Origin: Haloferax volcanii DS2
GTDB taxonomy: Archaea; Halobacteriota; Halobacteria; Halobacteriales; Haloferacaceae
Length of the DNA: 32,000 nt
Assembly (NCBI RefSeq): GCF_000025685.1
Contig: NC_013967.1
Coordinates: forward strand, 1,680,001 to 1,712,000
Direction: 5' to 3'
Shown here: in pieces, positions 9,319 to 28,768 of the stretch
Position numbering within the stretch: the first letter of the stretch is position 1
Layout: each line of letters begins with the position of its first letter
Position numbers and translations under genes: made by a program
The notes under the pieces: generated by a model
What the model was told of the DNA's origin: nothing
The model's input: only the letters and a program-made list of their open reading frames with translations
Databases searched by the model: none

Positions 9319-9486
9319 ACGCGACCCTCGCGCGCGGCGGTAAAAACGTCGGCGGCTGCGGGCGCGAGGTCGCCCGCCTTCGGTCACAGTCACCCGAAGG
9401 CGGGCAGGCGACGCGAGTCGACGCGACGACGACCGCGCACGCGCCAAACCACAACCACTACCACCCCCCGCGGACGATGCCGACGC

Positions 9487-11337: not shown

Positions 11338-12804
11338 GTGTCCCTCCCCGAAGGAGGTTCCCTCACCGAAGGCGACCTCAAACGGCCGATGTTCGAACTG
11401 GCGTGGCCGATTATCGTCACCGAACTCCTCCAGGTGGCGTACAACCTCGCGGACACCGTCTGGCTCGGCCGGCTCTCGACCGACGCCGTCGCCGCCATCA
11501 GCCTCGCGTTTCCGCTCATCTTCCTGCTCATCTCCGTCGGTGGCGGCTTCACCGTCGCCGGGAGCACGCTCGTCGCGCAGTACACCGGCGCGAAAAGCGA
11601 GGGCTCCGCCGGGACCGTCGCCGGGCAGACGCTCACGTTCATCACCGTCATCGCCGTCGTCGTCGGCGTCATCGGCTTTTTCGCCACCGACGCGATGCTC
11701 GGCGTCCTCCCGAGCTCGGAGGCGACCGCCGGGCAGGTCATCCCCCTCGCCGGCGACTACATGCGGGTGTTCTTCCTCGGCCTGCCGTTCCTCTTCGGCT
11801 TCTTCGTCTTCTCCGCGCTCATGCGCGGCTACGGCAACACCCGCGCCCCGATGGTCGTGATGTTCATCAGCGTCGTCATCAACATCGTCATCGACCCGGT
11901 GTTCATCTTCGGCTTCGACGCCAACCCGCTGTTTTCGATGCTCGGAGTAGAGGGCTTTCAGGCGAGCCTCTTCGCCGCCACGGGTTTCGACGGCTTCAAA
12001 GTCGCCGGCGCGGCGTACGCGACGGTCCTCTCGCGCGCCGTCGCCACCGTCATCGGCATCTACGTCATCTTCGGGACGAGCGCCGGCCCCGACGTGCAAC
12101 TCGCCGACTTCCGCCCGCAGTTCGAGTACATCAAGCAAATCGTCGATATCGGCGTCCCGAGCGCCATCGAGCAGTCCGCCACCGCCCTCGGCTTCATCAC
12201 ACTCACCGCGATGGTCGTCACGTTCAACCCCGAAGTCGTCGCCGCGTTCGGCCTCGGCAACCGCCTCACGTCGCTCGTGTTCCTCCCGGCGCTCGGCCTC
12301 GGGCGAGCGACCAACACCATCGTCGGCCAGAATCTCGGCGCACAAAAACCGGAGCGCGCCGAGAGCGCCGTCCGGCTCGCCGCCAAGGTCGGCGCGAGCG
12401 TCATGCTCGTCACCGGCGTCCTCGCCTACATCTTCGCCGAACCCATCGTCGCGTTCTTCCTCCAGACCGGGACGGCCTCGGCCGCCCAAACCATCGACCT
12501 CGGCGTCGAGTACATCCGCATCCGCGCGGTCGAGTTCGGCTTTATTGGCGTCCTCCAGGTCATCCTCGGCGCGTACCGCGGCGCGGGGAACACGAAAACC
12601 GCCCTCGGCTTCTCGCTTTTCGCGCTCTGGTTGGGCCGCGTCCCCATCGTCTACCTGCTTTCGTTCCAGTTCGGCTTCGCCGAGACCGGTATCTGGCTCG
12701 GAATGGCCGTCGGACAGATTCTCGGCGCGATTGCGGCCACGGCGTGGTTCACCCGCGGGACGTGGAAACACAGCGTCGTCGACGCCGACGCGGTCGGAAC
12801 GTAA
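11338..12804 (+). CDS. MATE family efflux transporter
   Basis: WPIIVTELLQVAYNLADTVWLGRLSTDAVAAISLAFP plus about 12 hydrophobic segments. The start is uncertain: in-frame GTG at 11338 (VSLPEGGSLTEGDLKRP...) or ATG at 11389. The track start 11197 gives an implausible Arg/Cys-rich leader. Confidence 0.85.
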   Translation: MSLPEGGSLTEGDLKRPMFELAWPIIVTELLQVAYNLADTVWLGRLSTDAVAAISLAFPLIFLLISVGGGFTVAGSTLVAQYTGAKSEGSAGTVAGQTLTFITVIAVVVGVIGFFATDAMLGVLPSSEATAGQVIPLAGDYMRVFFLGLPFLFGFFVFSALMRGYGNTRAPMVVMFISVVINIVIDPVFIFGFDANPLFSMLGVEGFQASLFAATGFDGFKVAGAAYATVLSRAVATVIGIYVIFGTSAGPDVQLADFRPQFEYIKQIVDIGVPSAIEQSATALGFITLTAMVVTFNPEVVAAFGLGNRLTSLVFLPALGLGRATNTIVGQNLGAQKPERAESAVRLAAKVGASVMLVTGVLAYIFAEPIVAFFLQTGTASAAQTIDLGVEYIRIRAVEFGFIGVLQVILGAYRGAGNTKTALGFSLFALWLGRVPIVYLLSFQFGFAETGIWLGMAVGQILGAIAATAWFTRGTWKHSVVDADAVGT

Positions 12805-12866
12805 TCGGCCGCCGGCGCGGGTTCCACAACGGTTTTACGTCGGTGACGTGTAGCTCCCTCCGCTGA

Positions 12867-12939
12867 GGGCCCGTAGCTCAGTGGACAGAGTGCTTGGTTC
12901 CGGACCAAGATGCCGCGGGTTCAAATCCCGTCGGGTCCG
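12867..12939 (+). tRNA. tRNA-Arg (anticodon CCG)
   Basis: Hand-folded cloverleaf: acceptor gggcccg/cgggtcc, D stem gctc/gagt, anticodon stem cttgg/ccaag with loop ttCCGga, T arm gcggg-ttcaaat-cccgt, discriminator g. Length 73 nt, no encoded CCA. Confidence 0.95.
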
Positions 12940-12940
12940 T
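12910..12940 (+). repeat. attL: 3' part of tRNA-Arg that is repeated at 20811-20841
   Basis: atgCcgcgggttcaaatcccgtcgggtccgt versus atgTcgcgggttcaaatcccgtcgggtccgt. That is 30/31 identical, with 27 exact (12914-12940 = 20815-20841), in direct orientation. Confidence 0.8.
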
Positions 12941-12970
12941 TCTACCCTTAGACGCTCCGCATTGACCGTA

Positions 12971-13013
12971 CAGAGGCGTCCTTGGTCCGGAACCAACCAC
13001 TCCGTCAACTGAG
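12971..13013 (-). repeat. inverted, degenerate partial copy of tRNA-Arg (D arm plus anticodon arm)
   Basis: gaggcgtccttggtccggaaccaaccactccgtcaactgag aligns to the reverse complement of tRNA positions 12877-12916 with about 35/41 matches, including a 16-nt exact run (cttggtccggaaccaa, 12981-12996). Confidence 0.5.
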
Positions 13014-13565
13014 ATTTGAACACTCTGCGTGACGCGCCTTACCGCCGTCGTGGCTTCCGCTAGATTCGAACACGGTACTCTACAAGTAGATTTCTCAAGA
13101 TAAACAGAACCAAAGTCAGAGATGGATCACTACATCTGAATCACCGGATTATCTCTGCGTCACGGCCACTCCATAAGGCGGGCTTCCGTCCGAGGGTGTT
13201 TGCCCCCACTCCGCTACCACTCCGTGGGTCCCACCTCTCCCTCTGGGTCCGGGTCCCGCCGCCCGCTCCCGCCATCTCGGGAGAGCAAGGAGTGTCTGAA
13301 TGAATATGTGACTAGCAAAACCGCGAGTACAATCAGAACGTAGTCCCACCGAATGTGATGCTCAAAGCTGTGGGTCCGAACAACTCGTTCAGTCACGTTC
13401 TCTTGGAGTGGGTTCATACAACGCCCACCTCACTTCTCGGCATCGTCTGAACGTAGACCGAGATCAGAAGGATAGCTATCGAGATAACCCCGAGTCTGAA
13501 CCCCGGTGACGTGAGTCCAGAATTAGGTGACGCCAGCTTACTTGGTGCTTTCTCAAAGGGCATGG

Positions 13566-13763
13566 CTATACCACCACCTCAAGCAAACCCTCACAATGTG
13601 GACACCGAAGGTTCCCAGACCGCCCATCTCGGTAGTGTTCGAGAATTCGTCTAATGAGTTCAGAATTAGATACCCCAAGTCGTTCTGACTCACGATTTAG
13701 GAACTCACACATAGCATCATCCGTCTTCGTTCCGACCGATATGGAGCCAAAGCATTGAGACAT
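13566..13763 (-). CDS. small ribbon-helix-helix (CopG-like) regulator with a C-terminal CxxC
   Basis: 65 aa with a clean ATG. SISVGTKTDDAMCEFLNRESERLGVSNSELIRRILEHY fits the RHH beta-strand/helix/helix pattern. Ends in CPHCEG. Confidence 0.6.
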   Translation of the reverse strand: MSQCFGSISVGTKTDDAMCEFLNRESERLGVSNSELIRRILEHYRDGRSGNLRCPHCEGLLEVVV

Positions 13764-13781
13764 AGTAAATAAACAATTGTG

Positions 13782-13808
13782 CTTGTACTATATACAAGTT
13801 TGCTTGTA
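13782..13808. promoter_or_regulatory. candidate promoter/operator of the RHH gene
   Basis: Palindrome cttgta-ctata-tacaag (13782-13798), with its tatata core about 27 bp upstream of the ATG at 13763. The half-site gcttgta is repeated at 13781 and 13802 (21-bp spacing). Confidence 0.3.
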
Positions 13809-14288
13809 TACGGTGCGTACTCGACCGTACACAAAGTTTGAGTAACCGTGACTTTAAGTACCTCAAATCACGAGGTCCGGTATCGCGGTTCGCTCCGCGC
13901 CGGACACCTCTGTCGGAACCCACACGGAGATACCCTACGTTCATTTGACCGAGCGACCGACCGACCCGGAATAACCGAAAACCTCACCCACCAGGGTAGG
14001 AAGACGGACCACGGGGAGGGAGGGAGTGAAGGGACTACATGAACATGGGACAACCCGGATGGAAACGACAAGGAACACGGACATACCCAACCCACCGATA
14101 CGCGGTAACGGAGGGAGAGGGAGAGGGGATATTTTCTATACCATACAAATATTACTGTGGTGCATTATAACGCCTCTGTCTGTCGGTTTTCTATCTCGCG
14201 CATGACGAGCAAAACACACCAAAATTCAAGAAAGCGTTATATACAAGTCCCGTAGCGAGAGAATCTATATACTCATACGGATCTGGTT

Positions 14289-14480
14289 TCAGATACCGTA
14301 TAACTCTCCACGTTCCAAGGCACGACTGATTGTACGGCGAGAACAGCACAGTTCCTGAGCCGCTGTACGCTTACTCAGTTCCTCTTTCCGTACGCTATCG
14401 AGAACAGCAACCACACGGTCGTATTGTGCGCTCTCTATGAGTCTTCCATCGTCTTTCTCGAATCCGATTGGAGCAGGTCC
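14289..14480 (-). pseudogene. serine recombinase (resolvase/invertase), C-terminal HTH fragment separated from its N-terminal part by an IS
   Basis: Encodes ...GPAPIGFEKDDGRLIESAQYDRVVAVLDSVRKEELSKRTAAQELCCSRRTISRALERGELYGI (resolvase-type HTH). It joins in frame with 15936..16397 once the IS and one target duplication are removed. Confidence 0.8.
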
Positions 14481-15925
14481 CATCCGTTCTAGTTTAACGA
14501 AGAATCCAGTTGCTGTCTGTTGATTTGATATCGTCGCAACTACCTGATTGAGAAACCCGGTGGGAAGTATGACCTACAGCCCACCGGATTCGGTCATAGT
14601 TGACCGGATTCAAAGAGCGTTTCCCTCTGATGAGTTGCGCGAGCGCGCTCGCGCAACGAATCTCGTCCAACGAGAGCGGAAATTCGACATCGTTGCGCTG
14701 TTCTACACACTCTCGTTTGGCTTCGCTGCTGGCTCAGACCGCTCTCTCCAAGCATTTCTCGAACGCTACGTCGAGATGGCTGACTGTGACGAACTCTCCT
14801 ACGCATCGTTCCACGACTGGTTCGAACCAGGATTCGTTGCACTCCTTCGAGAGATTCTCGATGACGCAATCGAGAATCTCGATACCGGACGAGAAGATTT
14901 GAACGGCCGTCTCGAACGCTTTCGAGACGTCCTCATTGCTGACGCAACCATCGTTTCGCTGTACCAGGACGCCGCTGATATCTACACAGCAACCGGCGAC
15001 CATCAAGCCGAACTGAAACTTCACCTCACCGAATCTCTCTCGACTGGGCTCCCGACACGATTCCGGACAACCGATGGGACGACTCATGAACGGAGTCAGC
15101 TACCCACCGGTGAGTGGGTAGCTGACGCCCTCATCTTGCTCGATTTAGGCTTCTACGACTTCTGGTTGTTCGACCGAATCGACCAGAACGGCGGGTGGTT
15201 CGTCTCCCGGGTGAAGGACAACGCGAACTTCGAGATCGTCGAAGAACTGCGAACGTGGCGAGGCAACAGCATTCCGCTGGAAGGAGAGTCGCTGCAGGCC
15301 GTCCTTGAGGACCTGCAGCGACAGGAAATCGACGTCCGCATCACGCTTTCATTCGAGCGCAAACGAGGGTCGGGCGCCAGCGCGACCCGGACGTTCCGAC
15401 TGGTCGGCCTGCGCAACGAGGAGACCGACGAGTACCATCTGTATCTGACGAATCTGGCGAGAGAGGACTACAGCGCGCCCGATATCGCGCAGCTCTATCG
15501 GGCGCGCTGGGAGGTCGAACTGCTGTTCAAGGAGCTGAAGTCGCGGTTCGGCTTGGACGAGATCAAGACGACCGACGGCTACATCATCGAGGCGCTGATC
15601 ATCATGGCCGCAATTTCGTTGATGATGAGTCGTGTAATCGTGGATGAGTTACGGTCGCTCGAGGCAAGACAGCGAGAGGGCGAAGCCGCCGCAGACGCCG
15701 ACTCGTCGGCGTCGCGGCTCCCTCGGCGTCGCTGTTCGCTCGCCGTGGAACGCCACGGTCATCTAATCCAGTTGTATCTCATGATCGAGTTGGGCTACGA
15801 ACTGCCGGATTTGGACGAGCTGTTGCTGTGGGCGTCACGAAATCCAAATCCACACAGAGATCGGTTACGTGAGCAGGTTGAACGAGGTGAGTTCGGCTTT
15901 GATCGCTACTAAACTAGAACGCATG
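14481..15925 (+). mobile_element. IS4-family insertion sequence (ISH8-like), about 1445 bp
   Basis: Terminal inverted repeats are catCcgttctagttta (14481-14496) and the reverse complement of taaactagaacGcatg (15910-15925), 15/16 matching. It is flanked by a direct duplication gagcaggtcc (14471-14480 and 15926-15935), or 11 bp if the preceding g is counted. Confidence 0.85.
14569..15912 (+). CDS. IS4 family (ISH8-group-like) DDE transposase
   Basis: 447-aa ORF from ATG 14569 (MTYSPPDSVIVDRIQRAFPSDELRERARATNLVQRERKFD...) with LYRARWEVELLFKELKSRFGLDE, the Y-x2-R-x3-E-x6-K region typical of IS4 transposases. The stop lies inside the right IR. Confidence 0.9.
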   Translation: MTYSPPDSVIVDRIQRAFPSDELRERARATNLVQRERKFDIVALFYTLSFGFAAGSDRSLQAFLERYVEMADCDELSYASFHDWFEPGFVALLREILDDAIENLDTGREDLNGRLERFRDVLIADATIVSLYQDAADIYTATGDHQAELKLHLTESLSTGLPTRFRTTDGTTHERSQLPTGEWVADALILLDLGFYDFWLFDRIDQNGGWFVSRVKDNANFEIVEELRTWRGNSIPLEGESLQAVLEDLQRQEIDVRITLSFERKRGSGASATRTFRLVGLRNEETDEYHLYLTNLAREDYSAPDIAQLYRARWEVELLFKELKSRFGLDEIKTTDGYIIEALIIMAAISLMMSRVIVDELRSLEARQREGEAAADADSSASRLPRRRCSLAVERHGHLIQLYLMIELGYELPDLDELLLWASRNPNPHRDRLREQVERGEFGFDRY

Positions 15926-16397
15926 GAGCAGGTCCATGATGATACTCGGGATTCGCCTGACGGGCCGCTATGCCCTCTCGCGTGTTCATCCGTTTCACTC
16001 GCGCCTCCCACTCCGCGAACGCTCCGAGCATCTGCATCTGTAGTCTGTGCATGGGTTGTTCGTCGCCATCCCCGAATGAGAGACCATCCCTGACGAAATG
16101 TATCGTCGCTCCCGACTCCATGACGCGAGAGACGGTACGATCCAAATCTTGGAGTGACCGAGCGAGACGGCTAATCTCATGGACAACCACCGTATCCACC
16201 TCTCCCGCCTCTACGTCGCCCATGAGGCGCTTGTAACCCTCTCGGGAGGTGTTTGTACCTGTTGCCTTGTCTCGGTACACCTGAAGCTCTGAGAGGGCCA
16301 CATCGAGTTCACTCTGAGAGTAAGTAGTAGTGGACTCAATCTGCCGGTCAAGATTCTGCTCAGGAGTAGAAACACGGCAATAACAACCGACCTTCAT
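15926..16397 (-). pseudogene. serine recombinase (resolvase/invertase), N-terminal catalytic fragment truncated by IS insertion
   Basis: MKVGCYCRVSTPEQNLDRQ... contains the catalytic-Ser motif, followed by ...TVVVHEISRLARSLQDL...FAEWEARVKRMNTREGIAA. The reading frame runs into the IS after HHGPAP and terminates there (track ORF 15909..16406). Confidence 0.85.
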
Positions 16398-16543
16398 GCC
16401 CACCACTTAGCACTTAAAAAGGGTAGCCTTTACGCCCAGACTGTGCGAGAAGGACCGTAACTGCATCCGATCCAGACGGGAAGTCCATACCTGATTTCAA
16501 CCCATCTACAAGTTTTTAAGACCCTATTCCATTGTCAAACGGT

Positions 16544-16835
16544 ATGGGAAATAGCGATATGGATCTTGAAGCCGAGGAATTGAGGCTTATTGATCTACTG
16601 GGTGAACGAACCCGTATCTTCCGTGTTCCGATCTTCCAAAGGGAGTATAAGTGGAAACAGAAGCAACGTTCCGAATTATGGGATGATATTGAAACGATAG
16701 GTACTGAGGCAAAGCCTTCTCACTTTGTCGGACAGGTTATTCTTGTAGAAGATGAGAGGAAGTCCGACGAAGACGTAGACACATACAAGATTGTAGATGG
16801 CCAACAACGACTGACTACATTTTCTATACTAGTCT
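16544..16835 (+). pseudogene. GmrSD-like type IV restriction enzyme, N-terminal DUF262 fragment (interrupted by ISH3-family IS)
   Basis: FRVPIFQREYKWKQKQRSELWDDI...HFVGQVILVE...IVDGQQRLTTFSIL is the DUF262/ParB-like NTPase motif set. ATG at 16544; the track start 16532 is TTG. The ORF is cut at 16835/16836. Confidence 0.8.
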
Positions 16836-18225
16836 CAGTACCTCACAAAGCATCCTCGGCTAGCTGTTTCTGAAGCCTGAGTTCTGTGTCGGAGCGGTTG
16901 CATTGACGGTCTCGACGGGAGAATCATGGACGAATCGGTGGAGAGCTGTCGCTGTCGGCGGCGGTCAGCCGCTGACGCGACAGCGTCGCCACTCACACCG
17001 CTGGCTAGCCCGGTCAAGAGTTACCGGCTAAACCGGTCGTCTGGTGGCCGGTTCGCGGGGACGGCCCGACGCACCGCGAGGGCCGTCCACGCTGCCCGTC
17101 GAATCAAGTTGGTGAATTCCTTGTACGACCACTCCCAGAGGCGACGCCCGCCTCGGCGGGGCGTCGCCACGTACTCCCAGTGCAGATACCGCCACACGTT
17201 CTGTAACAGCAAACTCACCACGACGTACAACAGCCGTACGACCGGATTCTGTGTCGTAGTCGTCGCAATCGTTTGCTCGGAGAGTCGGTAGCTCGCCTCG
17301 ATACCGAAGCGTTTCGCGTAGTGGTATCGAGCGTCTCGTGGTGAGTTGATGAACGGCGCGTCAGCGGCGTAGCCGTGACGCGCCACGCCATGTTCGTCGT
17401 ACCGTCCGTTCTGGTAGGTACAGTCGATGTAGACGGGAAACTCGACGGTCCAGCTGTGACCGTCGAGTTTCGCTGTCAGACTGTGCTGAATCACGCGACT
17501 CCACCCTTCTGAGAGTTCTCGCTTGATCGTTCGTCCCCAGCGGACGATCGGCATGACGTACGCGTGGTTGTGCGCCTGAAGCAGCGTCAAACACTTGCTG
17601 TCGTAGAATTCGCGGTCAAGATAGACGGCCTTGACACCGAGGTCAAGGCCGTCGAGAATACCGAGGAACTCTGCGAGGACACTGCTGGCGGTGTCGCCGT
17701 CTTCGAGACGGCGCACCGCCAGCGTGTAGCGTTTGTTCTTCACGCGTGCGTACAGTGTCGCGTACGCGTGGAACGCGGTGGTTCCACGTTTGCTTGGGAG
17801 TGATAGAGACCGTCCGTGTCGTCTTCGTCACCATAGTAGGGCCGCAGGTGGAGGTCTGCGCAGACCTCCCCGCAGGACGTCGAGAACGTCCTTCTGGAGG
17901 AGCGTGTTCCCGATTTGTTCGAGCGTCTCGAGGTCGAACTTGGTGCGGAGATGGTAGAGAACCGAGTTTTCGTGAGGTGCATCTTCGCTTCTCTTGCAGA
18001 GTGTAGAGACCGAGGTCCCGTCGGCGCAGGCGCCGACGAGGACCTCGTAGATGTCTTCAGCACCGATTTCAGCGTTTTCACCGAGAGTGAGTGCAACTTC
18101 CTCGTCAAGGGAGTTGACGAGGAAGTTAAGGAGCTGGTCCTCGTGGATTGAACCGTCTGCTTGCTTGGTATTAGACACACCTTCAGCAAGCGGACGTCTC
18201 AACTAACCAGCTTTGTGATGTACTG
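16836..18225 (-). mobile_element. ISH3-family insertion sequence, copy A (1390 bp, degenerate transposase)
   Basis: The ends are cagtacCtcacaaagc (16836-16851) and gctttgtgAtgtactg (18210-18225), 16-bp IRs with 1 mismatch. There is a perfect 5-bp target duplication agtct (16831-16835 and 18226-18230). It is closely similar, though not identical, to copy B at 24636-26036. Confidence 0.85.
17021..18202 (-). pseudogene. ISH3 family transposase, disrupted by two frameshifts
   Basis: Homologous to the intact 397-aa ORF of copy B but spread over three frames (17828..18202, 17740..18189, 17021..17743). Relative to copy B there is an 8-nt deletion at about 17866-17869 and a 1-nt deletion near 17791. 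Confidence 0.8.
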
Positions 18226-18230
18226 AGTCT

Positions 18231-19651
18231 GCGCAATTCGAGATGCTGCAGATCTCCACGATAACAAAAACGTAGAGAGCATACTCACGACACATGATAA
18301 GAACGGAGACGAAATACGAACTCTCCACCTCCTTGATGGAGACGAAGAAGCATACCAACATCTCTACGATGGAAGCCCAGAGCTGATTGAAGAGGATCAC
18401 CGAATCCGTGAAGCATACGATTTCTTCAAGCAGAAGCTATCTGATCTGGATACCGATGAACAAATAGACCTTCTCAAGAACGTCGTCAACAATGTTGATT
18501 TAGTTCGGACTTCGTGTGGTAGTATGACTGCGGCGTACCAAGTGTTTCAAACACAAAACGACCGTGGGCTTGCGTTATCTCCGCTTAACCTCGCTAAAAC
18601 AAAACTCCTAGAAGAGGCGAGTCTGGTTGGACTGAACGAGGAGTCCGTTAGACGCCGTTGGGAAAACATTTCCACCCGGTTAGAAGAAAACGACCAGGTG
18701 AGCAGCGCAGCCCCCCGAAGAGCGTTTACGCACTACTTGATTGTCGACGAAGAATACGACGTTCGGAGTAGAGTGACCACCAAAGACTTCTACCGGACAT
18801 TCGCGGCTGCTTTGGACAAGCATGAGGGGGCAACAGAGATACGTCGATTCATCTCAAAGCTTGAGGACTACACAGACAGGTACATAGATATCCACGAAGG
18901 AACCGTTCGTAAATATCAGCGTAACAAGAGGAGTTTGATTAACGACCAAATGAGGTTCTTCCAGAGCAAGAATTCTCATGCTCCGGTTGTTCTCTTGTAT
19001 CTTGTCGAGAACATTGATACAGCGGACGAGATGGAGAATTTACTGCGATTAGCGAACAAGCTGAATGTCCGTCTGAACTTGCAGGATGCTGCGCCAGCTT
19101 ACCATCGAGACAGCATGTACCAACTTGTAACTAAGCTCATCGATAGTAAGCAGTCCAAGTGGGAGGATGAAGCAGAAGATCTAATAAAAGAACGTACCGT
19201 CAGCGACAAGCAGTTAAAAGAGATATTGAAAGGCCGAGAGCTTCCGAACAGCCGCTTCACCCGTTTCCTGCTCCGTGCTCTGGAAGAGGATTACTATAAC
19301 GCTGGCTCTCGTGAGACCAGAATTGACCTTGACCAAGTCGATCTTGAGCATATCGCACCGCTTAGCTCTCTTTCATCGGAGAGATATAGCACATGGGCAG
19401 CGGTCTTCAATCATAATGAGGAACGCTTTGATCACTACAAATCCAGACTTGGAAACCTTACGCTACTTGCAGACCGGCAGAATTCGAGAGTAAGGAATGG
19501 CTCGTATGCTGAGAAGTGCGCTGAGTACGAGCAGTCAGATATTACCATGACTCAGAGAATTCCAGACAATTATCCTTCCTGGGGCTTTGAGACGATAGAA
19601 GACCGTACCCGGACGATTGCTCAAGATATCGTGAATTTGTGGGGTGTGTAA
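18231..19651 (+). pseudogene. GmrSD-like type IV restriction enzyme, remainder (DUF262 C-part plus DUF1524 HNH-like nuclease domain)
   Basis: Continues the frame of 16544..16835 exactly (…FSILV|CAIRDAADLHDNKN…). It contains QVFQTQNDRGLALSPLNLAK and the DUF1524-type nuclease region DLEHIAP...LGNLTLLADRQNSRVRN. Track ORF 18524..19651 is its distal part. Confidence 0.8.
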
Positions 19652-19698
19652 GACCTAGTTCAAAAATAGGCTAAAGGTTGCTGTGGATACCGTCCTAT

Positions 19699-20727
19699 TC
19701 AGATATTGTTTAGGTAGCCTCTCCGTTGTTCTACCTTCTGTTCCTCGGTTCTCTGATCGTAGTGCTTTGAGAGAACTTGCTGACCAACGTTCATACGGTC
19801 GCTAACAACTTTCTCAGGAACATCACGAGAGAGGAAGTGCGTGATACTCCCTCGCCTCACGTCGTGCGGAGAGACTGAGGACGGGCACTTACTGGCACTC
19901 TTTCGGTGATCATCCAGAGCCTCACACGTCGCAACCTCACGGCCGTGTGGGCACTCTCCCGTGTATTCACACGGTCTTGTGAGACGGTACACGTTCTCCC
20001 GTATAGCCGTCCGAGACACACGCCCCTGAGATGTAGTGAATAATGGCTCACGGCCGTAGTCATCACTCATATCGGGACGCACATTCTCTATCCAGTCCGT
20101 AAGCACTTCACACGTATCCGGTCGGAGTGCAACTAGTCTCTCCCCCTCAGAACCATTCTTGAGTGGTGTGTCTTGCTCCGGCCTGTGGTGCAGTCTGATT
20201 CGGGCTTGTGGTTCATCGTAGTCCTGTAAGTCAAGCCCGCGTGCCGCTCCGAGACGGATTCCAGTCCGCCAGAGTAGGAGTAGAAGCGTATGCTGGAAAG
20301 AAGCGTACTGGAAGCGTTCTAGGCGATTCAGAATCTTTGTGGCTTCCTCATTCGTGAGTATAGTTTTCTTGTGGTCTTCGTTAGGCGAGAGAGACGGAGA
20401 GACAACAGACTCACACAGATTGTTCCTCACGGCGTCAATCCTCTCACAGAAGCGAATAAACACCCGTATCGTATCCATCTGAGTCTTCAGACTCACGTTA
20501 GATAGATTTCCTACCTCACGTCTCCAAAGGCGATACTGATGCATCCTCCGTCCACTCAGGACATTCAGATTCTCTATGTCTTGTTCATCACACCACCGTT
20601 GGAAGTAATCCAAGCGGTATCCGTGGGCCTTCAGCGTCGCCTTCGATACCTCTGTTTCTCGTTCTTGTAGGTACATCTCGACCGCTGTTGATGGGTCGAT
20701 AGGTTCCAAGTCGTGTTGGTCTGGCAT
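19699..20727 (-). CDS. tyrosine recombinase / phage-type integrase
   Basis: ATG at 20727 (MPDQHDLEPIDPSTAVEMYLQERE..., a SAM-like N domain). The catalytic region has TGIRLGAARGL (Arg box), HDVRRGSITHFL (H-x-x-R) and LSKHYD (catalytic Tyr). Its 5' end lies about 85 bp from attR. Confidence 0.85.
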   Translation of the reverse strand: MPDQHDLEPIDPSTAVEMYLQERETEVSKATLKAHGYRLDYFQRWCDEQDIENLNVLSGRRMHQYRLWRREVGNLSNVSLKTQMDTIRVFIRFCERIDAVRNNLCESVVSPSLSPNEDHKKTILTNEEATKILNRLERFQYASFQHTLLLLLWRTGIRLGAARGLDLQDYDEPQARIRLHHRPEQDTPLKNGSEGERLVALRPDTCEVLTDWIENVRPDMSDDYGREPLFTTSQGRVSRTAIRENVYRLTRPCEYTGECPHGREVATCEALDDHRKSASKCPSSVSPHDVRRGSITHFLSRDVPEKVVSDRMNVGQQVLSKHYDQRTEEQKVEQRRGYLNNI

Positions 20728-20810
20728 GGTTCTGTTTGGGAAGCCAGACTGAAACAGCGATACGTGCAATAGCACGCCCACAGACCTTGTTTTTGAGTTT
20801 ATTTCATACA

Positions 20811-20841
20811 ATGTCGCGGGTTCAAATCCCGTCGGGTCCGT
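20811..20841 (+). repeat. attR: displaced copy of the tRNA-Arg 3' end
   Basis: See attL. This is a 30/31 direct repeat of 12910-12940. It is not preceded by the remainder of a tRNA. Confidence 0.8.
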
Positions 20842-20846
20842 CCAAA

Positions 20847-20851
20847 TTTTT
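20847..20851 (+). terminator. T5 run immediately after attR, likely the ancestral tRNA-Arg terminator
   Basis: The sequence is gtccgtccaaaTTTTTgg. Oligo-T tracts are the usual archaeal termination signal. The intact tRNA at 12939 is no longer followed by one. Confidence 0.3.
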
Positions 20852-20907
20852 GGCGTTTTCTATATGTAGAAAACGTCCGACTCACGTCTTCTACCGGCAG
20901 GTCTCAT

Positions 20908-20927
20908 CGCGGGTATATATACTCGCG
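20908..20927 (+). promoter_or_regulatory. TATA box embedded in an imperfect palindrome; candidate promoter/operator of the three-gene operon
   Basis: cgcgGgtatatataCtcgcg has 10-nt arms with one mispair per arm position 5. It lies about 90 bp upstream of the ATG at 21014. Confidence 0.35.
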
Positions 20928-21013
20928 AGCAGGGGCCGAAAAAGAGTCCACCACGAAACGGAACGCGGGTCGCCGCTGTCTTGCGGTCGGGCCGGGCCAA
21001 CGGGGTGGTCGGC

Positions 21014-21250
21014 ATGATGCTGCTCGACTCGGAGAGCCGAAAGAGCAGCTGTCTCAACTGCGGGTCACACGTCACCCGCGACTTCCGCCGCGTCTACGGT
21101 GACCGCGAGGACCGCGCGCACCGCTGTCACGAGTGCGATACGCTGGTTCGCCTACAGCGCGGTTCCGCGGGCGGTCTCGACGTTCCGATTCCGGACCCGT
21201 GGGACGGTGCTCCCGGTCGGCACGGCGGTAACCCGGAGCGGTGGCAATGA
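21014..21250 (+). CDS. small zinc-ribbon protein (CxxC-x21-CxxC), paralogue of the chromosomal gene at 28467..28622
   Basis: MMLLDSESRKSSCLNCGSHVTRDFRRVYGDREDRAHRCHECDTLVRLQRG... ATG at 21014 inside track ORF 20981..21250. The stop overlaps the next start (ATGA). Confidence 0.65.
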   Translation: MMLLDSESRKSSCLNCGSHVTRDFRRVYGDREDRAHRCHECDTLVRLQRGSAGGLDVPIPDPWDGAPGRHGGNPERWQ

Positions 21251-21342
21251 CGGTTCGCTGTCCGTCCTGCAGCCGCGACAGCGACTGCATCTTCCGCTGT
21301 GAGTACTGCGGCCGCGATCTCGCGGAGGAGGACCGGCGGTGA
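21247..21342 (+). CDS. 31-aa zinc-ribbon micro-protein (absent from the ORF track)
   Basis: atg acg gtt cgc tgt ccg tcc tgc ... translates to MTVRCPSCSRDSDCIFRCEYCGRDLAEEDRR. Its ATG overlaps the upstream stop (ATGA, 21247-21250) and its TGA overlaps the downstream GTG (GTGA, 21339-21342). Confidence 0.5.
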   Translation: MTVRCPSCSRDSDCIFRCEYCGRDLAEEDRR

Positions 21343-22970
21343 GTTCCGTCGCGAGCGCGCCCCACGAGACGCGCGGTGATCTCCTCTACGACGAATACGG
21401 TTCGTCGCCGTACTGGGCGGTTCGCCAGCTGTACAACCACATCGACGGCGGTATCTCGAAGATCGAGATAGAAGTTCCCCGCCTCGAGGAGGACGGAACC
21501 GAGACGTGGGGGGTCTCGATGGGCTTCCACCAGTCGGGTCTGTCTCCGCGTGAGGCAGATACGGTGAACTCGCTTCTCGAGTACGACATCAACGCGTACG
21601 GTGAGGGAGAGCGGAAGCTTCCAGTCTGTGTGCAGCCGCGACTCGCGTGGTCCGACGAGAACCGTCCTGATAGCGTTCCTGCGACGCTTGGGCCTGCCAC
21701 GAACGTGAAACTGCAGAACGTCGTGAATCTGGAGTTAGACGAGATACCTCACGTCTTCAAGTGGGTGATGCGCCGCGTGTGCGAGAAAGTCGGCTTCGAC
21801 TGGTCGCGCAAGTATTTCGCCGAAGACCCACACAAGTTCTCGACGATAACCCAGCACGAGCGGTACCTGCGGATCGACCGCGATCAAGCGAAGAAGTTGG
21901 TCAGGCGCGACGGCGTCTTCATGCGGTTGTTCATGCTCTCGGCCGACATCGAGGGCTCGCACGTCGTCTACGATTCGAACAACGAGGACGTAGTCGGCTA
22001 CAACCACCAGCTCCGGCTCGATCGGTCGGCTATTGCTGATCTCTTCCCGAACAGCCAGCACCGTCCTCGAGGACTACAGCTGAAGCACTACCACCCGCAG
22101 TACGTCCGAGAAAGTTCGGACGGTGACCCGCTGTACCACCCGAAACTCGGCGCGCTGTACAAGAAGAACCTGAACCGCGATCAGGCGGTCGCGTGGGACG
22201 ACCGGCACGATCTGGTCGGCGACCTGGAAGAGAAATTGCTGAACGTCCTGTCGTGGGCGGACATCCCGACTCGACCCGGCATGTGGTTCGTCGCTGACGA
22301 CCACTTCAGCGCGGTCGCGTCCGGTCGGACCATCGCGCTGTGGGACGATCCGACGCCGCAGATCGAAGCGTCCCAGGAGTCAGTCATCATGCGCACGCTC
22401 TCGCGTCTCTCAGACACGGATCGCGACGTGCTCAAGCACTTGGCACTCACCGACGGCGGAACGAGAGTCGGTGAACTCGAGGACGGTACCGGCTGGTCCT
22501 CCACGACGATCTACCGCGTTCTGCAGCGGCTCTCTGGGCTTCTCGAGAACGACGGCGGAGTCGTGAAGTGGGTCTCCTCGAAGATCGCGCAGGAAGTGCG
22601 CGAGCTGGTGAGTATCGCCGACGACGTGGTAGACTCGGTCGCCGGTCGGATCGAGAACGTACTGAACGTCGACCCGCGCGACCTAGAGCGGTCTGGTCGT
22701 GCCCTGCAGAACTGGCTGAACCGCTACGGCGCGGAGGTTGTCGCCGGAATGGACGACCGTGACGACCGCGTGCGGATTCGTATCCGGACGGTGCTCACTC
22801 AGTCGAAGAACTCCACGGCGACCGGCGAGTACCTTCCCGACGTGCTCGAGGAGGGATACAGCGCGTGGTGTGACGCCGGACTCGACTCGCGGCGGTTCCT
22901 CAACGCGATTGTGACCTATGACCGGGCGTACGGTCCCGTGCAGAACACGGTCGCTCGGAAGCACCTGTAG
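21339..22970 (+). CDS. 543-aa protein of unknown function with a winged-helix-like DNA-binding segment
   Basis: Long ORF with a GTG start coupled to the micro-ORF. The segment DRDVLKHLALTDGGTRVGELEDGTGWSSTTIYRVLQRLSGLLEN (about 22420-22570) resembles MarR/TrmB-type wHTH. There is no P-loop and no catalytic motif I can recognise. Confidence 0.75.
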   Translation: MSSVASAPHETRGDLLYDEYGSSPYWAVRQLYNHIDGGISKIEIEVPRLEEDGTETWGVSMGFHQSGLSPREADTVNSLLEYDINAYGEGERKLPVCVQPRLAWSDENRPDSVPATLGPATNVKLQNVVNLELDEIPHVFKWVMRRVCEKVGFDWSRKYFAEDPHKFSTITQHERYLRIDRDQAKKLVRRDGVFMRLFMLSADIEGSHVVYDSNNEDVVGYNHQLRLDRSAIADLFPNSQHRPRGLQLKHYHPQYVRESSDGDPLYHPKLGALYKKNLNRDQAVAWDDRHDLVGDLEEKLLNVLSWADIPTRPGMWFVADDHFSAVASGRTIALWDDPTPQIEASQESVIMRTLSRLSDTDRDVLKHLALTDGGTRVGELEDGTGWSSTTIYRVLQRLSGLLENDGGVVKWVSSKIAQEVRELVSIADDVVDSVAGRIENVLNVDPRDLERSGRALQNWLNRYGAEVVAGMDDRDDRVRIRIRTVLTQSKNSTATGEYLPDVLEEGYSAWCDAGLDSRRFLNAIVTYDRAYGPVQNTVARKHL

Positions 22971-23286
22971 CCGGTGGCCGTCTGAGTGGCAACACTCTCG
23001 GCCAGTTCCTTCTTTTATATACTACGCTCCGATTTTAGGCTGAACCCTGTTTTCGGGTGGAGTTTCAATTCTCCGTGAGCGGCCGTGCTCGAGGAGATCG
23101 AGCGGGTGCTCTCCCGCTGGATGGGAAAGCCCCCTTAGGGAGTGTGACTAACGTCACAACTGGGGAAAAATAACCCTCCGCCTCCGCATCTCCACCTGAT
23201 GCACGCGAAAGGGGTCTCAAAATGTCGTGCCTATTCGGGCGACGCGTAGCGCCCCATTTATGTTCAATTGCTGTGGACTCGGAGTA

Positions 23287-23676
23287 GTGAGCGACGAACT
23301 CCCCACCGCCAAAGAGATCTTAGCGACTCACGAGCTTGTGGAAGAGCATTGGGATCTCAAGTATCGTGGGACGCGCGTCGCTGCCCCGAGGTTGAAATTC
23401 AAACGACTACTCAGAAGGGTCTCGGAGTCCGAACCGGTGTACCCCCGCGCCGCTGCACTTCTGCGCGAAATCGCAACGGAGCACTACTTCGAAGACGGAA
23501 ACAAGCGGACTGCATGGCTGACGATGCGCGACTACCTGGACCGCCACGGGGAGAAGCCAGCAGACACAGGAGAGACTGCGGTACAGGTGATGAAGCGAAT
23601 TCGCCGTTTCGACACCGAAGAACTCGCTATCTGGCTGGTAACAGGAGATCTCGATCACGATAAACTCGAGCCGTGA
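23287..23676 (+). CDS. Doc (death-on-curing) / Fic family toxin
   Basis: The Doc-type Fic motif H-x-F-x-D-G-N-K-R is present (EHYFEDGNKRTAW). The N-terminus LPTAKEILATHELV is Doc-like. The start is ambiguous: GTG 23287, ATG 23260 or the track start GTG 23227. Confidence 0.8.
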   Translation: MSDELPTAKEILATHELVEEHWDLKYRGTRVAAPRLKFKRLLRRVSESEPVYPRAAALLREIATEHYFEDGNKRTAWLTMRDYLDRHGEKPADTGETAVQVMKRIRRFDTEELAIWLVTGDLDHDKLEP

Positions 23677-23723: not shown

Positions 23724-23825
23724 ATGAGTCTCTCTCACCCCGACGAGGAATCCGACGACCACGAAGAGCGGATTGCTCGGTTCATCGAAGAGGACTTCGA
23801 GCTGCTCGACGCGCTTCACGAGTAA
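23724..23825 (+). CDS. 33-aa acidic helical micro-protein downstream of Doc (absent from the ORF track); speculative antitoxin candidate
   Basis: An ATG-initiated ORF, MSLSHPDEESDDHEERIARFIEEDFELLDALHE, sits 48 bp after the Doc stop on the same strand. Confidence 0.35.
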   Translation: MSLSHPDEESDDHEERIARFIEEDFELLDALHE

Positions 23826-24183
23826 CTCCCGAACGAATTTCCTCACCTGTTTTGACGGCAGTAGAAGACTGAGCGATAGCTGTTTCCAGAACCAGTCGCG
23901 TCTTTCAGAGTGACCTTTGACCCACGTCGATCTCGCAGCTCCTCGAGCACACCAACATCCGAAATCGAGTCGTCACCGGGAACCGACCACCACCGGAACC
24001 CCGCCAAACTGAACCATATAGTAAGTAATTATACGCCGCCAAGGGGGTGTGTGGTGGTGGCCGTTGCTCGAAGTGTGCGCGGTCTAGTAATTTTACGTTT
24101 GACACCGACCACGGCCTGTATTCGTGGTTGGTGACTTAGGAGATAGAACTAAGTAGGATTGGGTGGCCGGTGAGGTGTCAGCA

Positions 24184-24411
24184 ATGGTATTTCGAAAGCT
24201 CCGGAACCACGACGGCACCCCGCTTGTTGCACTCGACCGTGACGATCTCGTCCTCGACGGCGTCATCGCTGCTGATGAGGATGAGCGCGAGGACCAGAAC
24301 ATGCACGTTCAGCGGTTGGGCAAAGGCGTCTACGTCGTTCGTCCGGTGCCGGAAGACGGACCGATCCAGCCGCTACACGAGACTGAGCTGTTGCAAGGGT
24401 TGGTCAACTAA
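24184..24411 (+). CDS. 75-aa hypothetical protein (weak resemblance to AbrB/SpoVT-type swapped-hairpin N-terminus)
   Basis: MVFRKLRNHDGTPLVALDRDDLVLDGVIAADEDE...; ATG at 24184 within track ORF 24163..24411. The assignment rests on pattern only. Confidence 0.45.
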   Translation: MVFRKLRNHDGTPLVALDRDDLVLDGVIAADEDEREDQNMHVQRLGKGVYVVRPVPEDGPIQPLHETELLQGLVN

Positions 24412-24635: not shown

Positions 24636-26036
24636 CAGTACATCACAAAGCCTGTTAGTTGAGACGTCTGCTTGCTGAAGATGTGTCCAAGCAACCACAG
24701 CAAGCAGACGATGAAATCCACGAGGACCAGCTCCTTAACTTCCTCGTCAACTCTCTTGACGAGGAAGTTGCTCTCTCACTCGCTGAAAACGCTGAACTCG
24801 ATGCTGAAGACATCTACGAGGTCCTCGTCGGCGCCTGCGCCGACGGGACCTCGGTCTCAACGCTCTGTGAGAGAAGCGAAGATGCACCCCACGAAAACTC
24901 CGTTCTCTACCATCTCCGCACTAAATTCGATCTAGAAACGCTCGAACAGGTTGGCAACACGCTCCTCCAGAAAGACGTTCTCGACGTCCTTCCCCAGCAG
25001 GTGGAGGTCTGCGCAGACCTCCACCTGCGGCCCTACTATGGTGACGAAGACGACACGGACGGCCTGTATCACTCACAAGCGAAGCGTGGAACCACCGCGT
25101 TCCACGCGTACGCGACGCTGTACGCACGCGTGAAGAACAAACGCTACACGCTGGCGGTGCGCCGTCTCGAAGACGGCGACACCGCCAGCAGTGTCCTCGC
25201 AGAGTTCCTCGGTATTCTCGACGGCCTTGACCTCGGTGTCAAGGCCGTCTATCTTGACCGCGAATTCTACGACAGCAAGTGTTTGACGCTGCTTCAGGCG
25301 CACAACCACGCCTACGTCATGCCGATCGTCCGCTGGGGACGGGCGATCAAGCGAGAACTCTCGGAAGGGTGGAGTCGCGTGATTCAGCACAGTCTGACAG
25401 CGAAACTCGACGGTCACAGCTGGACCGTCGAGTTTCCCGTCTACATCGACTGTACCTACCAGAACGGACGGTACGACGAACATGGGGTGGCGCGTCACGG
25501 CTACGCCGCTGACGCGCCGTTCATCGACTCACCACGAGACGCTCGATACCACTACGCGAAACGCTTCGGTATCGAGGCGAGCTACCGACTCTCTGAACAA
25601 AGTATCGCGACGACCTCGACACAAAATCCGGTTGTACGGCTGCTGTACGTCGTGGTGAGCTTGCTGTTACAGAACGTGTGGCGGTATCTGCACTGGGAGT
25701 ACGTGGCGACGCCCCGCCGAGGCGGGCGTCGCCTCTGGCAGTGGCCATTCAAGGAGTTCATCAACATGATCCGACGGGCAGCGTGGACGGCCCTCGCGAC
25801 GCGTCGGGCCGTCCCCGCGAACCGGCCACCGGACGACCGGTTCCACCGGTAACTCCCGACCGGGCTAGCCAACGGTGGGAGTGGCGACGCTGTCGCGTCG
25901 GCGGCAGCCGCCGCCGACAGCGACGGCTCTCCGCCGATCCGTCCATGATTCTCTCGTCGAAACCGCCAGTCCAACCGCTCCGCCACAGAACTCAGGCTTC
26001 AGAAACAGCTAGCCGAGGACGCTTTGTGAGGTACTG
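24636..26036 (+). mobile_element. ISH3-family insertion sequence, copy B (1401 bp, intact transposase)
   Basis: IRs are cagtacAtcacaaagc (24636-24651) and gctttgtgAggtactg (26021-26036). The flanking pentamers atact and atatt match at only 4/5 positions. Confidence 0.85.
24683..25852 (+). CDS. ISH3 family transposase
   Basis: A single ORF: ...EIHEDQLLNFLVNSLDEEV...LHLRPYYGDEDDTDGLYHSQAKRGTTAFHAYATLYARVKNKRYTLAVRRLEDGD...YAKRFGIEASYRL. There is no in-frame ATG, so the likely start is GTG 24683 (MSKQPQQ...) or TTG 24659 (track). Confidence 0.85.
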   Translation: MSKQPQQADDEIHEDQLLNFLVNSLDEEVALSLAENAELDAEDIYEVLVGACADGTSVSTLCERSEDAPHENSVLYHLRTKFDLETLEQVGNTLLQKDVLDVLPQQVEVCADLHLRPYYGDEDDTDGLYHSQAKRGTTAFHAYATLYARVKNKRYTLAVRRLEDGDTASSVLAEFLGILDGLDLGVKAVYLDREFYDSKCLTLLQAHNHAYVMPIVRWGRAIKRELSEGWSRVIQHSLTAKLDGHSWTVEFPVYIDCTYQNGRYDEHGVARHGYAADAPFIDSPRDARYHYAKRFGIEASYRLSEQSIATTSTQNPVVRLLYVVVSLLLQNVWRYLHWEYVATPRRGGRRLWQWPFKEFINMIRRAAWTALATRRAVPANRPPDDRFHR

Positions 26037-26124: not shown

Positions 26125-26198
<74 letters not shown>

Positions 26199-26288: not shown

Positions 26289-26315
26289 GGTTCAAGTCCC
26301 TCCCAGCCCGTTTCT
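26289..26315 (+). repeat. second copy of the tRNA-Lys 3' end (att-like remnant)
   Basis: ggttcaagtccctcccagcccgtttct is identical to 26177-26203 (27/27) in direct orientation, 85 bp downstream of the tRNA. The upstream part cannot fold as a tRNA. Confidence 0.75.
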
Positions 26316-26584
26316 GCGACGAAGTACGTGCGGAGTGACACGGCTTTCTGATTCCTACGTCTCCGAGTGATAGCTTCATCAAGCCGTGTTGCACATTGCG
26401 TTGGCTACTTCCACTCCGTGGCTGTCGCTCTCGTCAAACTGGCACTTGTGAGAGTATCTTTCTATAAGGAGAGAACCCCGCCGCTTAGGGCGGGAGTGAA
26501 TCCGACACTTCCCACGCAATCACCGTCGATTGCAGGCGGGATATGCAACGACAGGTCGGCTGACCCCGGCCTGCGATTTTTCGG

Positions 26585-28466: not shown

Positions 28467-28622
28467 TTAGTGTCGGGTCGCTCTCGCTTCTCGGACCTGC
28501 GAACCGTCCCGGACTAAGTCCTCACAGTGCGGACAGACGCGGGGGGCGTCCATGCCCTCCGGGGCGAACACCCTGACGTAACCTTCCGTGACGAAAGAAT
28601 TGCAGTTCTGACATGTAGGCAT
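28467..28622 (-). CDS. small zinc-ribbon protein (CxxC-x22-CxxC)
   Basis: ATG at 28622 (MPTCQNCNSFVTEGYVRVFAPEGMDAPRVCPHCEDLVRDGSQVREARATRH) inside track ORF 28467..28736. Confidence 0.65.
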   Translation of the reverse strand: MPTCQNCNSFVTEGYVRVFAPEGMDAPRVCPHCEDLVRDGSQVREARATRH

Positions 28623-28768
28623 GGCGGTCGTGCGTACCACGTCAACTGAGTTAGATGTTGTGGGCGATTTTCGGCATCCGACACCGACCCCGACCGCGGC
28701 AGGTCGCCCGAGTCGACGCGGCCCCCGGCGGCGCAAACCACTTTGACCGGCGGGCGTGTGGAACTGCC

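Follow-up and report, generated by a model that had tools for sequence, protein, structure and literature searches.

A putative rolling-circle replication module in a truncated tRNA-Arg-integrated element of Haloferax volcanii DS2

A stretch of 32,000 nucleotides from Haloferax volcanii DS2 (contig NC_013967.1, positions 1,680,001 to 1,712,000; hereafter the window, whose numbering is used throughout) holds three same-strand open reading frames (ORFs), ZnR1, ZnR2 and rep, that are chained by overlapping stop and start codons. We put at roughly 90% the probability that this trio is the rolling-circle replication module of a truncated element, integrated at tRNA-Arg(CCG), with relatives among the temperate betapleolipoviruses (such as SNJ2) and the pL6-type plasmids. 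The original prediction, which was made from the sequence without database searches, had regarded the trio as the best candidate for an undescribed system and had offered two hypotheses: one was a replication-initiation or maintenance module left by an integrated plasmid or provirus in decay, the other a novel DNA-sensing defence or regulatory complex. The first hypothesis was correct: the large protein falls into a known family of replication proteins, Rep-Arvir, it is already catalogued as part of an integrative element, and a putative origin lies downstream of its gene. The system itself is not undescribed, as the family was characterised in 2026 and the linkage of its members to CxxC genes was published in 2018.

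The Rep protein and its putative origin

The largest of the three ORFs (21339-22970, plus strand) encodes a protein of 543 aa from a GTG start. Residues 4-325 match the Pfam family DUF7845 (PF25227) with an E-value of 1.7e-92, over profile positions 2-314 of 315, and the same family was found in all 52 of the 52 Rep homologues. PHROG 3288 covers the protein over its full length (E 6e-176). With Rep as the query, tblastn matched the ORF9-like gene of ten betapleolipoviruses (including HRPV-3, HRPV9-13, HGPV-1, HHPV3/4 and SNJ2), the Haloarcula virus Harhisp1, the lemon-shaped virus LSV-48N and the F3 gene of the 6-kb pL6 plasmids of Haloquadratum. The sequence is identical to D4GSU5 / WP_004041727.1 of H. 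volcanii DS2, and D4GSU5 is classed 'IE' (integrative element) in Table S5 of Wang et al. (NAR, April 2026, PMC13107129).

Before 2026 these proteins were described as putative betapleolipovirus replication proteins with 'no homology to any known replication protein' (PMC10599561; PMC11431627). Wang et al. named the family Rep-Arvir and identified its members as rolling-circle replication initiators, RepSNJ2 being the tested member (PMC13107129). In that work SNJ2 ORF19 (RepSNJ2) together with 210 bp of downstream DNA replicated autonomously, single-stranded DNA (ssDNA) intermediates were detected, and the hairpin and inverted repeat of the origin were mutated; residues Y283 (in the motif KHYYM), E25, E303 and G410 were essential, and D207 was dispensable. 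The N-terminal DUF7845 domain was reported to have a TBP-like fold and to be a distant relative of the Rep_trans nickases (PMC13107129). By homology to RepSNJ2 we assign the 543-aa protein to the Rep-Arvir rolling-circle initiators, with nicking and the other activities of the family as predicted functions.

Three domains can be drawn in Rep: the putative catalytic DUF7845 domain (residues 4-325), a MarR-like winged helix-turn-helix (wHTH) at about 350-411 and an alpha/beta C-terminal domain at about 446-543. The winged-helix-like segment that had been recognised from the sequence near residues 360-410 coincides with a weak Pfam match to HTH_IclR at 363-399. A Foldseek search of the PDB with the full-length AlphaFold2 (AF2) model (pLDDT 85.5) also returned nothing other than MarR-type wHTH matches (MarR/ArsR-family structures, probability 1.0). 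The accompanying remark that the protein has no nuclease motif was wrong in substance. By homology its first 325 residues make up a catalytic tyrosine endonuclease domain, which is not recognisable by eye.

Most of the residues studied in SNJ2 have counterparts here. We compared family alignments of 50, 53 and 24 sequences, and SNJ2 ORF19 was aligned with 24 family members. The residues K249-H250-Y251 (codons 22083-22091, plus strand) align with K281-H282-Y283, so that Y251 lies over the catalytic Y283 of the KHYYM motif, and K249 and Y251 are invariant in all three alignments. E25 corresponds to E10, which is at least 90% conserved. The TDGG motif of the wHTH linker (D408-G409-G410) corresponds to D372-G373-G374; G374 is invariant in every alignment, and G373 is invariant in the 24-sequence alignment and at least 90% conserved in another. 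The dispensable D207 aligns with Q172.

Some observations weigh against this assignment. E303 of SNJ2, reported to be essential and metal-coordinating (PMC13107129), aligns with G271 of the window protein (22149-22151), and glycine occupies the position in 22 of the 24 aligned members. Moreover, a Foldseek search of the PDB with the separately modelled N-domain gave nothing significant, RepDE (4CWC) being absent among the 50 best matches listed, and a search of BFVD with the same domain gave only unnamed matches with a TM-score of about 0.3. One published catalytic residue is thus not family-wide, and the published Rep-Arvir catalytic triad may not hold across the family. Other acidic residues, E55, E81, E174, D263 and D320, are invariant or nearly so, and could be candidate replacements for E303. 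In this column only SNJ2, pL6 and HRPV9 have glutamate.

The N-domain model is itself a confident one (pLDDT 91.5, pTM 0.90). It consists of two beta-alpha-beta4-alpha units with Y251 at a strand end in the second, and this predicted order of secondary structure fits a TBP-like architecture. According to PMC13107129, the Rep_trans initiators (pT181 RepC, pC221 RepD/RepDE; PF02486) share with Rep-Arvir the tyrosine nickase chemistry, the TBP-like fold, and an origin made of a bind-site inverted repeat and a nick-site hairpin. They differ in having YxxK as motif III in place of KHY, in lacking the extra wHTH and C-terminal domains of the window protein, and in showing no match to it at the sequence level: Rep_trans (PF02486) was not among the Pfam matches at E ≤ 0.1. 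The profile of the Rep family matched PDB sequences at the HTH level only, and a scan of NCBIfam yielded nothing useful. The Rep_trans/TBP relationship is therefore given here as reported in PMC13107129; our fold searches did not recover it independently.

Downstream of rep, beyond the coordinates of the original prediction, lies a putative bipartite origin, 13-188 nt 3′ of the stop codon. The 240 nt that follow the stop codon are conserved among the Haloferax loci and hold every element that has been mapped in SNJ2. Origin motif 1, at the probable operon end (22983-23021, plus strand), opens with TGAGTGGCAACACT (22983-22996), which is identical in SNJ2. This is followed, about 40-50 nt 3′ of the rep stop, by a T-rich stretch, and the SNJ2 transcript ends at the corresponding T-rich stretch (PMC13107129). 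The inverted repeat AGCGGG-N6-CCCGCT (23101-23118, plus strand; with flanking ATC/GAT pairs, 23097-23122) is the positional counterpart of the inverted repeat that forms the Rep 'bind site' of SNJ2. The equivalence is assigned from position alone, as the sequence of the repeat is not conserved between elements, a variability that is also described in PMC13107129.

The second part is a putative nick-site hairpin of the double-strand origin, TGTGAC-TAAC-GTCACA (23143-23158, plus strand), which is located 173-188 nt after the rep stop with the conserved CCCCTTAGGGAG 5′ of it. The SNJ2 hairpin, TGGC-TAAG-GCCA, lies 186-197 nt after the stop. A hairpin with a TAA loop occurs 171-225 nt downstream of rep in 31 of the 38 rep loci that we compared, and its stem varies (GTGGC, GTGAC, GTGCC, GTGTC, GTCGC, GTCCC), each time with a matching 3′ arm. 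For example, the stem pair 20-27 is found as all four Watson-Crick types (GC, CG, AU, UA) across the 31 loci. In the stem alignment 97.6% of cells are paired, versus at most 46.4% when the partner is slid, a percentage that is biased upward because a perfect stem of at least 4 bp was demanded of every hairpin collected; the position and the flanking CCCCTTAGGG motif are unaffected by this. As ssDNA the origin region folds into exactly two hairpins, the inverted repeat and the TAA-loop hairpin (z = -2.95).

If Rep works as RepSNJ2 does, its MarR-like wHTH would bind the inverted repeat about 130 nt 3′ of its own gene, and its DUF7845 domain would nick the TAA loop of the 23143-23158 hairpin through Tyr251, staying covalently attached. 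Host polymerase and helicase would then copy the circle. ZnR1 and ZnR2 would be upstream cistrons of the same polycistronic message, with their translation coupled to that of Rep by the 4-nt overlaps.

Zinc-ribbon genes coupled to rep

The two small ORFs precede rep in a tight chain. ZnR1 (21014-21250, plus strand) encodes a four-Cys zinc ribbon of 78 aa from its ATG, with cysteines at 13, 16, 38 and 41; an alternative GTG start at 21005 would give 81 aa. ZnR2 (21247-21342, plus strand) encodes a micro-protein of 31 aa with the pattern CPSC...CEYC. The ATG of ZnR2 overlaps the stop of ZnR1 in an ATGA (21247-21250), and the GTG of rep overlaps the stop of ZnR2 in a GTGA (21339-21342). The coordinates and overlaps given by the original prediction were exact. 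It had described both small proteins as four-Cys ribbons, and while the sizes and the four cysteines of ZnR1 stand, ZnR2 has a fifth: its cysteines at 5, 8, 14, 18 and 21 form two CxxC pairs and one extra Cys. Automatic annotations of the H. volcanii genome make no call for the 31-aa ORF.

The same trio, with identical overlaps, is also present in Haloferax massiliensis (locus L006) and Haloferax sp. DFSO60 (L004). The dN/dS ratios were calculated with DFSO60 as the reference, the DNA of the two being about 80% identical across the trio. They were 0.05 for the ZnR1 core, 0.22 for ZnR2 (from 27 codons only) and 0.07 for Rep, and every cysteine of ZnR2 is retained. From this conservation and the low ratios we conclude that all three ORFs are genuine genes under purifying selection.

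ZnR1 has identifiable relatives. It matches Pfam DUF7563 (E 9e-20) and phrog_7550 (E 9e-34), and it is 61% identical to SNJ2 ORF25 (E 1e-27), which opens the SNJ2 replication operon on the attP side. Homologues lie upstream of rep in 13 of the 38 loci, including HRPV9 and true proviruses. A chromosomal ORF of 89 aa elsewhere in the window (28467-28736, minus strand), outside the low-GC islands, also matches DUF7563 (E 2.7e-13), and the ZnR1 family is therefore not confined to mobile elements.

The DNA 5′ of ZnR1 is conserved as well. In the operon leader (20842-21013, plus strand) the box within a palindrome that had been noticed earlier was confirmed: CGCGGGTATATATACTCGCG at 20908-20927 is palindromic in 18 of 20 positions, centred on TATATATA, and is conserved within Haloferax only. 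A block GGAACGCGGGTCGCCGCTGTCTTGCG (20960-20985) and a Shine–Dalgarno (SD)-like ACGGGGTGGTCGG (21000-21012) are conserved more widely, in SNJ2 and further distant elements. Of the two, the latter resembles an SD sequence with its start codon, which supports ATG 21014 as the probable start of ZnR1. When the leaders of SNJ2 (L037, about 120-170) and of loci L015 and L007 were compared, the blocks GGAACGCGGGTCGCCGC-GTCTTGCG and ACGGGGTGGTCGG(C)RTG were seen just 5′ of the DUF7563 gene, a DNA-level conservation that extends from the Haloferax elements to SNJ2 and distant elements. Rfam gave no match on 20700-23400, and we dropped the idea of a structured RNA leader since the fold is no more stable than those of shuffled sequences (z -0.47). 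The TATATATA palindrome was also considered as an origin or DNA-unwinding element; this was rejected, as the palindrome is found in Haloferax only whereas the downstream elements are conserved family-wide.

No homologues of ZnR2 are detectable outside Haloferax among the 38 loci. Its place in the operon, however, is a recurrent one. An ORF overlaps the candidate rep start in 33 of the 38 loci, by 4 nt in nearly all, and 18 of these 33 ORFs contain a C-x(2-4)-C motif. Overlapping upstream CxxC genes were seen in SNJ2, HRPV-3, HRPV9, pL6 and many chromosomal loci, and Dyall-Smith and Pfeiffer had already described this arrangement in 2018 (PMC5974055). By position, ZnR2 is the equivalent of SNJ2 ORF20, HRPV-3 ORF10 and pL6 F2. 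SNJ2 ORF20 ends in a four-Cys ribbon and has a GTGA overlap with a candidate GTG start of orf19. In HRPV-3 three ORFs of 44, 80 and 545 aa (ORF11-ORF10-ORF9) are chained by 4-nt overlaps; ORF10 carries a CPVC motif and overlaps ORF9, the Rep homologue, which is followed downstream by the same kind of TAA-loop hairpin. Unlike the window element, HRPV-3 is a complete virus genome with VP and NTPase genes, and neither ZnR1 nor ZnR2 has a sequence homologue among its small ORFs.

The pL6 plasmids of Haloquadratum provide a third comparison through their F1-F2-F3 'replication module' (PMC5974055, PMC11431627). F3 is a Rep homologue (24.5-25.9% identity), F2, which contains CxxC motifs, shares 4 nt with the start of F3, and a TAA-loop hairpin follows 171 nt after F3. 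In contrast to the window element, which is chromosomal and flanked by an att (attachment) site on its left, pL6 replicons are free multicopy plasmids without an integrase. Their F2 is a protein of 297 aa with its own wHTH, and they have an R4-R7 module with an AAA+ ATPase (R6), whereas there is no ATPase gene in the window element.

Five of the overlapping ORFs (L018, L028, L030, L033 and L035) encode a Cys-free peptide with the motif FVRASRLYD(V/A)E, which appears to be a second, unrelated type of rep-coupled partner. This motif also opens SNJ2 ORF24 (L037, 400-732) and an ORF in L009. Within H. volcanii itself, the Halfvol1 locus pairs a Rep homologue (HVO_0279) with a small CPxCG zinc-finger gene (HVO_0280A), and both have been found up-regulated in one published cluster. 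Tarasov et al. reportedly described, in 2008, an abundant haloarchaeal class of 'small CPxCG-related zinc finger proteins'. ZnR2 and ZnR1 fit this class, and differ from it in being fixed in a mobile replication operon and coupled to Rep.

Two roles for the small ORFs can be weighed against each other, and neither is favoured strongly. It is possible, though we would not bet on it, that the zinc-ribbon ORFs, and ZnR2 above all, are mainly translated leaders that set Rep translation by coupling and are not stoichiometric partners. In plasmid R1, the tap leader peptide sets repA translation via coupling. Consistent with such a role, conservation is far stronger for the 4-nt NTGA overlap at the start of Rep than for the identity of the upstream protein, as the counts of overlapping, Cys-motif and FVRASRLYD ORFs given above illustrate, and an SD-like GGAGGAGG lies within the 3′ end of ZnR2. 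RepSNJ2 with its origin suffices for replication, although the resulting plasmids are unstable (PMC13107129). In the same work a nonsense mutation in each of orf19-26 of SNJ2 abolished genome amplification. Because the cistrons are translationally coupled, the upstream mutations may act by polarity on Rep, that is, by breaking the coupling.

Other evidence argues against a pure leader role: the peptide of ZnR2 and its Cys ligands are under purifying selection, ZnR1/DUF7563 is strongly conserved from Haloferax to SNJ2, and the instability of Rep-only plasmids points the same way. The alternative, that the zinc-ribbon micro-proteins are obligate stoichiometric partners of Rep-Arvir proteins (for example in origin melting or recognition, or in the recruitment of host helicase or primase), would explain why about half of the elements have a Cys-rich ORF overlapping rep despite the lack of sequence conservation. 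We advance it tentatively, as a doubtful proposal.

A truncated element at tRNA-Arg(CCG)

Between 12.9 and 26.1 kb the GC content of the window is about 50-63%, down from about 70%, and a tRNA-Arg(CCG) gene lies at 12867-12939. The 3′ end of this gene (12910-12940) is repeated directly, in 30 of 31 positions, at 20811-20841 (plus strand). This 31-nt att site is the left boundary of the Rep element and the right boundary of the island upstream of it. The operon had earlier been placed directly after the ancestral tRNA-Arg flank; what it follows is this duplicate of the tRNA 3′ end, which marks the left end of its own element.

An element with both ends is found in H. mucosum (L005). Here an intact tRNA-Arg directly precedes the homologous operon, and the host DNA upstream is syntenic to window 5866-12940. 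This places the Rep cassette at the tRNA-proximal end of an integrative element of its own, and makes 12941-20810 a second element inserted in tandem. The H. mucosum element runs from tRNA-Arg through ZnR1 and Rep to a plus-strand integrase (15028-16029 of that locus) and attR (16083), the integrase reading towards the att copy 7.5 kb beyond; an integrase and a right att site are also present in the H. massiliensis element. In 25 of the 33 genomic loci a same-strand tRNA gene lies upstream of rep. Placement at the end of the element beside the tRNA is general for rep, and matches what is known of SNJ2, where excision and circularisation were shown to join an integrase-borne promoter to the rep operon (PMC13107129). 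The intact relatives, whose operon is proximal to the tRNA and whose integrase lies at the opposite end, would form the same kind of junction on excision and circularisation.

In the window the far end of the element is gone. Directly after the origin comes a gene for a Doc/Fic toxin (23227-23676), followed by an acidic ORF of 33 aa (23724-23825). The orthologous elements of H. massiliensis, H. mucosum and DFSO60 have no Doc, and homology to them is interrupted between 23212 and 23916; there is no obvious Phd-type antitoxin gene upstream of Doc. The last gene common to the intact relatives encodes an 82-aa DUF8053 protein (24163-24411, plus strand) and marks the extent of the element before the insertion sequence (IS) transposase gene at 24659-25852 (plus strand), where homology to these relatives ends. 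The DUF8053 protein was found (L004, L005, L006, L024, L027 and L032) in the Haloferax elements and also in pleolipovirus-type proviruses, where its gene lies near the integrase end, and may belong to the regulatory region of these elements. The window contains no right-hand att copy of the Rep element at up to 3 mismatches, and no same-strand integrase; the sole integrase, on the minus strand at 19699-20730, is that of the upstream island. Because the IS sits exactly where homology to intact Rep elements stops, this copy may have caused the loss of the integrase end.

The IS transposase gene is present in two inverted copies, an intact one of 397 aa (24659-25852, plus strand) and one that is broken into overlapping frames (17021-18202, minus strand). 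An inversion between the two was considered as an explanation for the minus-strand integrase, and rejected, given that the att repeat and the operon are oriented relative to tRNA-Arg as in H. mucosum.

The tandem island (12941-20810, 7.9 kb) carries an IS4-type DDE transposase gene (14548-15912), a serine recombinase/resolvase gene (15909-16406, minus strand), a GmrSD restriction gene that the IS remnant splits into an N-terminal (16532-16873) and a C-terminal piece (18524-19651), and the tyrosine integrase gene (19699 to about 20730, minus strand), whose product shares 43% identity with the integrase that the Rep element of H. mucosum encodes. Serial insertion is also seen in H. mucosum (L005, 16083-18051), where the 15-nt att core TCCCGTCGGGTCCGT occurs four times. 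These copies bound the Rep element of 7.5 kb, and two cassettes of about 1 kb come after it. The first of these cassettes holds two adjacent small minus-strand ORFs (16263-16664 and 16668-16934), a candidate toxin-antitoxin pair. The four att cores and the extra cassettes point to tRNA-Arg(CCG) as a hotspot for serial integration in Haloferax. DFSO60 (L004, 8474-11632) has two integrases, one encoded on the same strand about 160 nt 5′ of ZnR1-ZnR2-Rep and the other about 7 kb 3′ of rep. The integrase-to-rep junction, which SNJ2 forms only on circularisation, may thus be recreated by tandem integration. Further along the window, the 3′ end of a tRNA-Lys(UUU) gene (26125-26198) recurs 112 nt on as a direct repeat of 35 nt (91%; 26289-26323), and the two resemble the att pair, or the scar, of a further integrative element that is very short or has been excised.

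Among the closest described systems is the orf26-orf19 operon of SNJ2. The two have in common the domain order of Rep (DUF7845, MarR-like wHTH, C-terminal domain) with the KHY tyrosine, the N-terminal glutamate and the TDGG linker, a bipartite origin at a matching distance downstream, a DUF7563 ribbon as first cistron, a four-Cys ribbon with a GTGA overlap onto rep as last small cistron, and a position at the att-proximal end of a tRNA-integrated element. They differ in that the Rep proteins are about 30% identical over about 55% of their length (tblastn) and are 543 and 659 aa long, the window protein having Gly in place of E303. The window operon is cut to three cistrons, without the equivalents of ORF21-24 that are present in H. 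mucosum, and the element has neither a virion module nor a cognate integrase. An excision-dependent switch of the SNJ2 type therefore cannot operate in it.

Alternative readings and what the module means

The element has lost its integrase and right att site and meets an IS at 24659, so that its cassette is most probably a remnant, stranded and normally silent. Against silence stand the complete state of Rep, the origin and the small ORFs, all fully intact, and the conserved TATA-like palindrome upstream, which could be an independent promoter. A smaller possibility is that the stranded rep and origin have kept their activity, and can nick the chromosome or serve Halfvol1 or other related elements in trans.

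In most database records the protein is called a 'MarR family / helix-turn-helix transcriptional regulator', and PHROG 3288 carries the label transcriptional regulator. An ordinary MarR/IclR-type regulator operon is nonetheless very improbable. The wHTH accounts for only about 60 of 543 residues and the conserved N-domain of 325 residues holds most of the invariant polar positions, including the catalytic tyrosine; mutagenesis in SNJ2 shows a replication function (PMC13107129), and the database name stems from the only domain that is recognisable by sequence.

That the cassette belongs to an intact, inducible pleolipovirus provirus, and not to a remnant or integrative plasmid, has very little chance of being right. 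Close relatives of Rep do occur in betapleolipovirus-type proviruses with homologues of HRPV-3 VP1, VP2 and ORF3-6 (L007, L024, L027, L029 and L034), and L024 has the set of DUF7563, small zinc ribbon and Rep. However, when the window and the three other Haloferax loci (L004-L006) were searched by tblastn with all HRPV-3 proteins, they yielded only ORF9 and no virion or NTPase gene. The roughly 1.7 kb between the origin and the IS hold Doc and the 82-aa protein, and the missing integrase and right-hand att copy also speak against this reading. The locus is not among the four named H. volcanii proviruses, which have other att tRNAs (Pro-TGG, Ala-CGC and Arg-TCG), and the authors of PMC13107129 class the protein as IE.

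The second of the two early hypotheses, a DNA-sensing defence or regulatory complex of two zinc ribbons and a wHTH protein, drew on the nearby GmrSD and Doc genes and on the DNA-binding wHTH of the large protein; it is effectively refuted, since PADLOC finds no defence family (nothing for ZnR1 or ZnR2, and for Rep only a weak wHTH-level match to Csa3, E 0.0016), GmrSD belongs to the separate tandem island and is itself split, Doc is missing from the orthologous elements of three other Haloferax species, and the function demonstrated for the family is replication, from a cognate origin that is present here.

The replication module adds little that is new to what has been published, although the sequence-only reading did pick out a real functional module and guessed correctly that it belonged to a decayed integrated element. 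For H. volcanii DS2, a genetic model, it means that a fifth element remnant exists beyond the four named proviruses, one in which the Rep-Arvir gene and the origin are apparently intact. This matters for the building of SNJ2-type vectors and for strains that are considered 'provirus-free'. The 31-aa ZnR2 gene has been overlooked by automatic annotation. Finally, it is documented that Rep-Arvir genes are repeatedly coupled to Cys-rich micro-ORFs, and H. volcanii is a tractable host in which this coupling can be tested.

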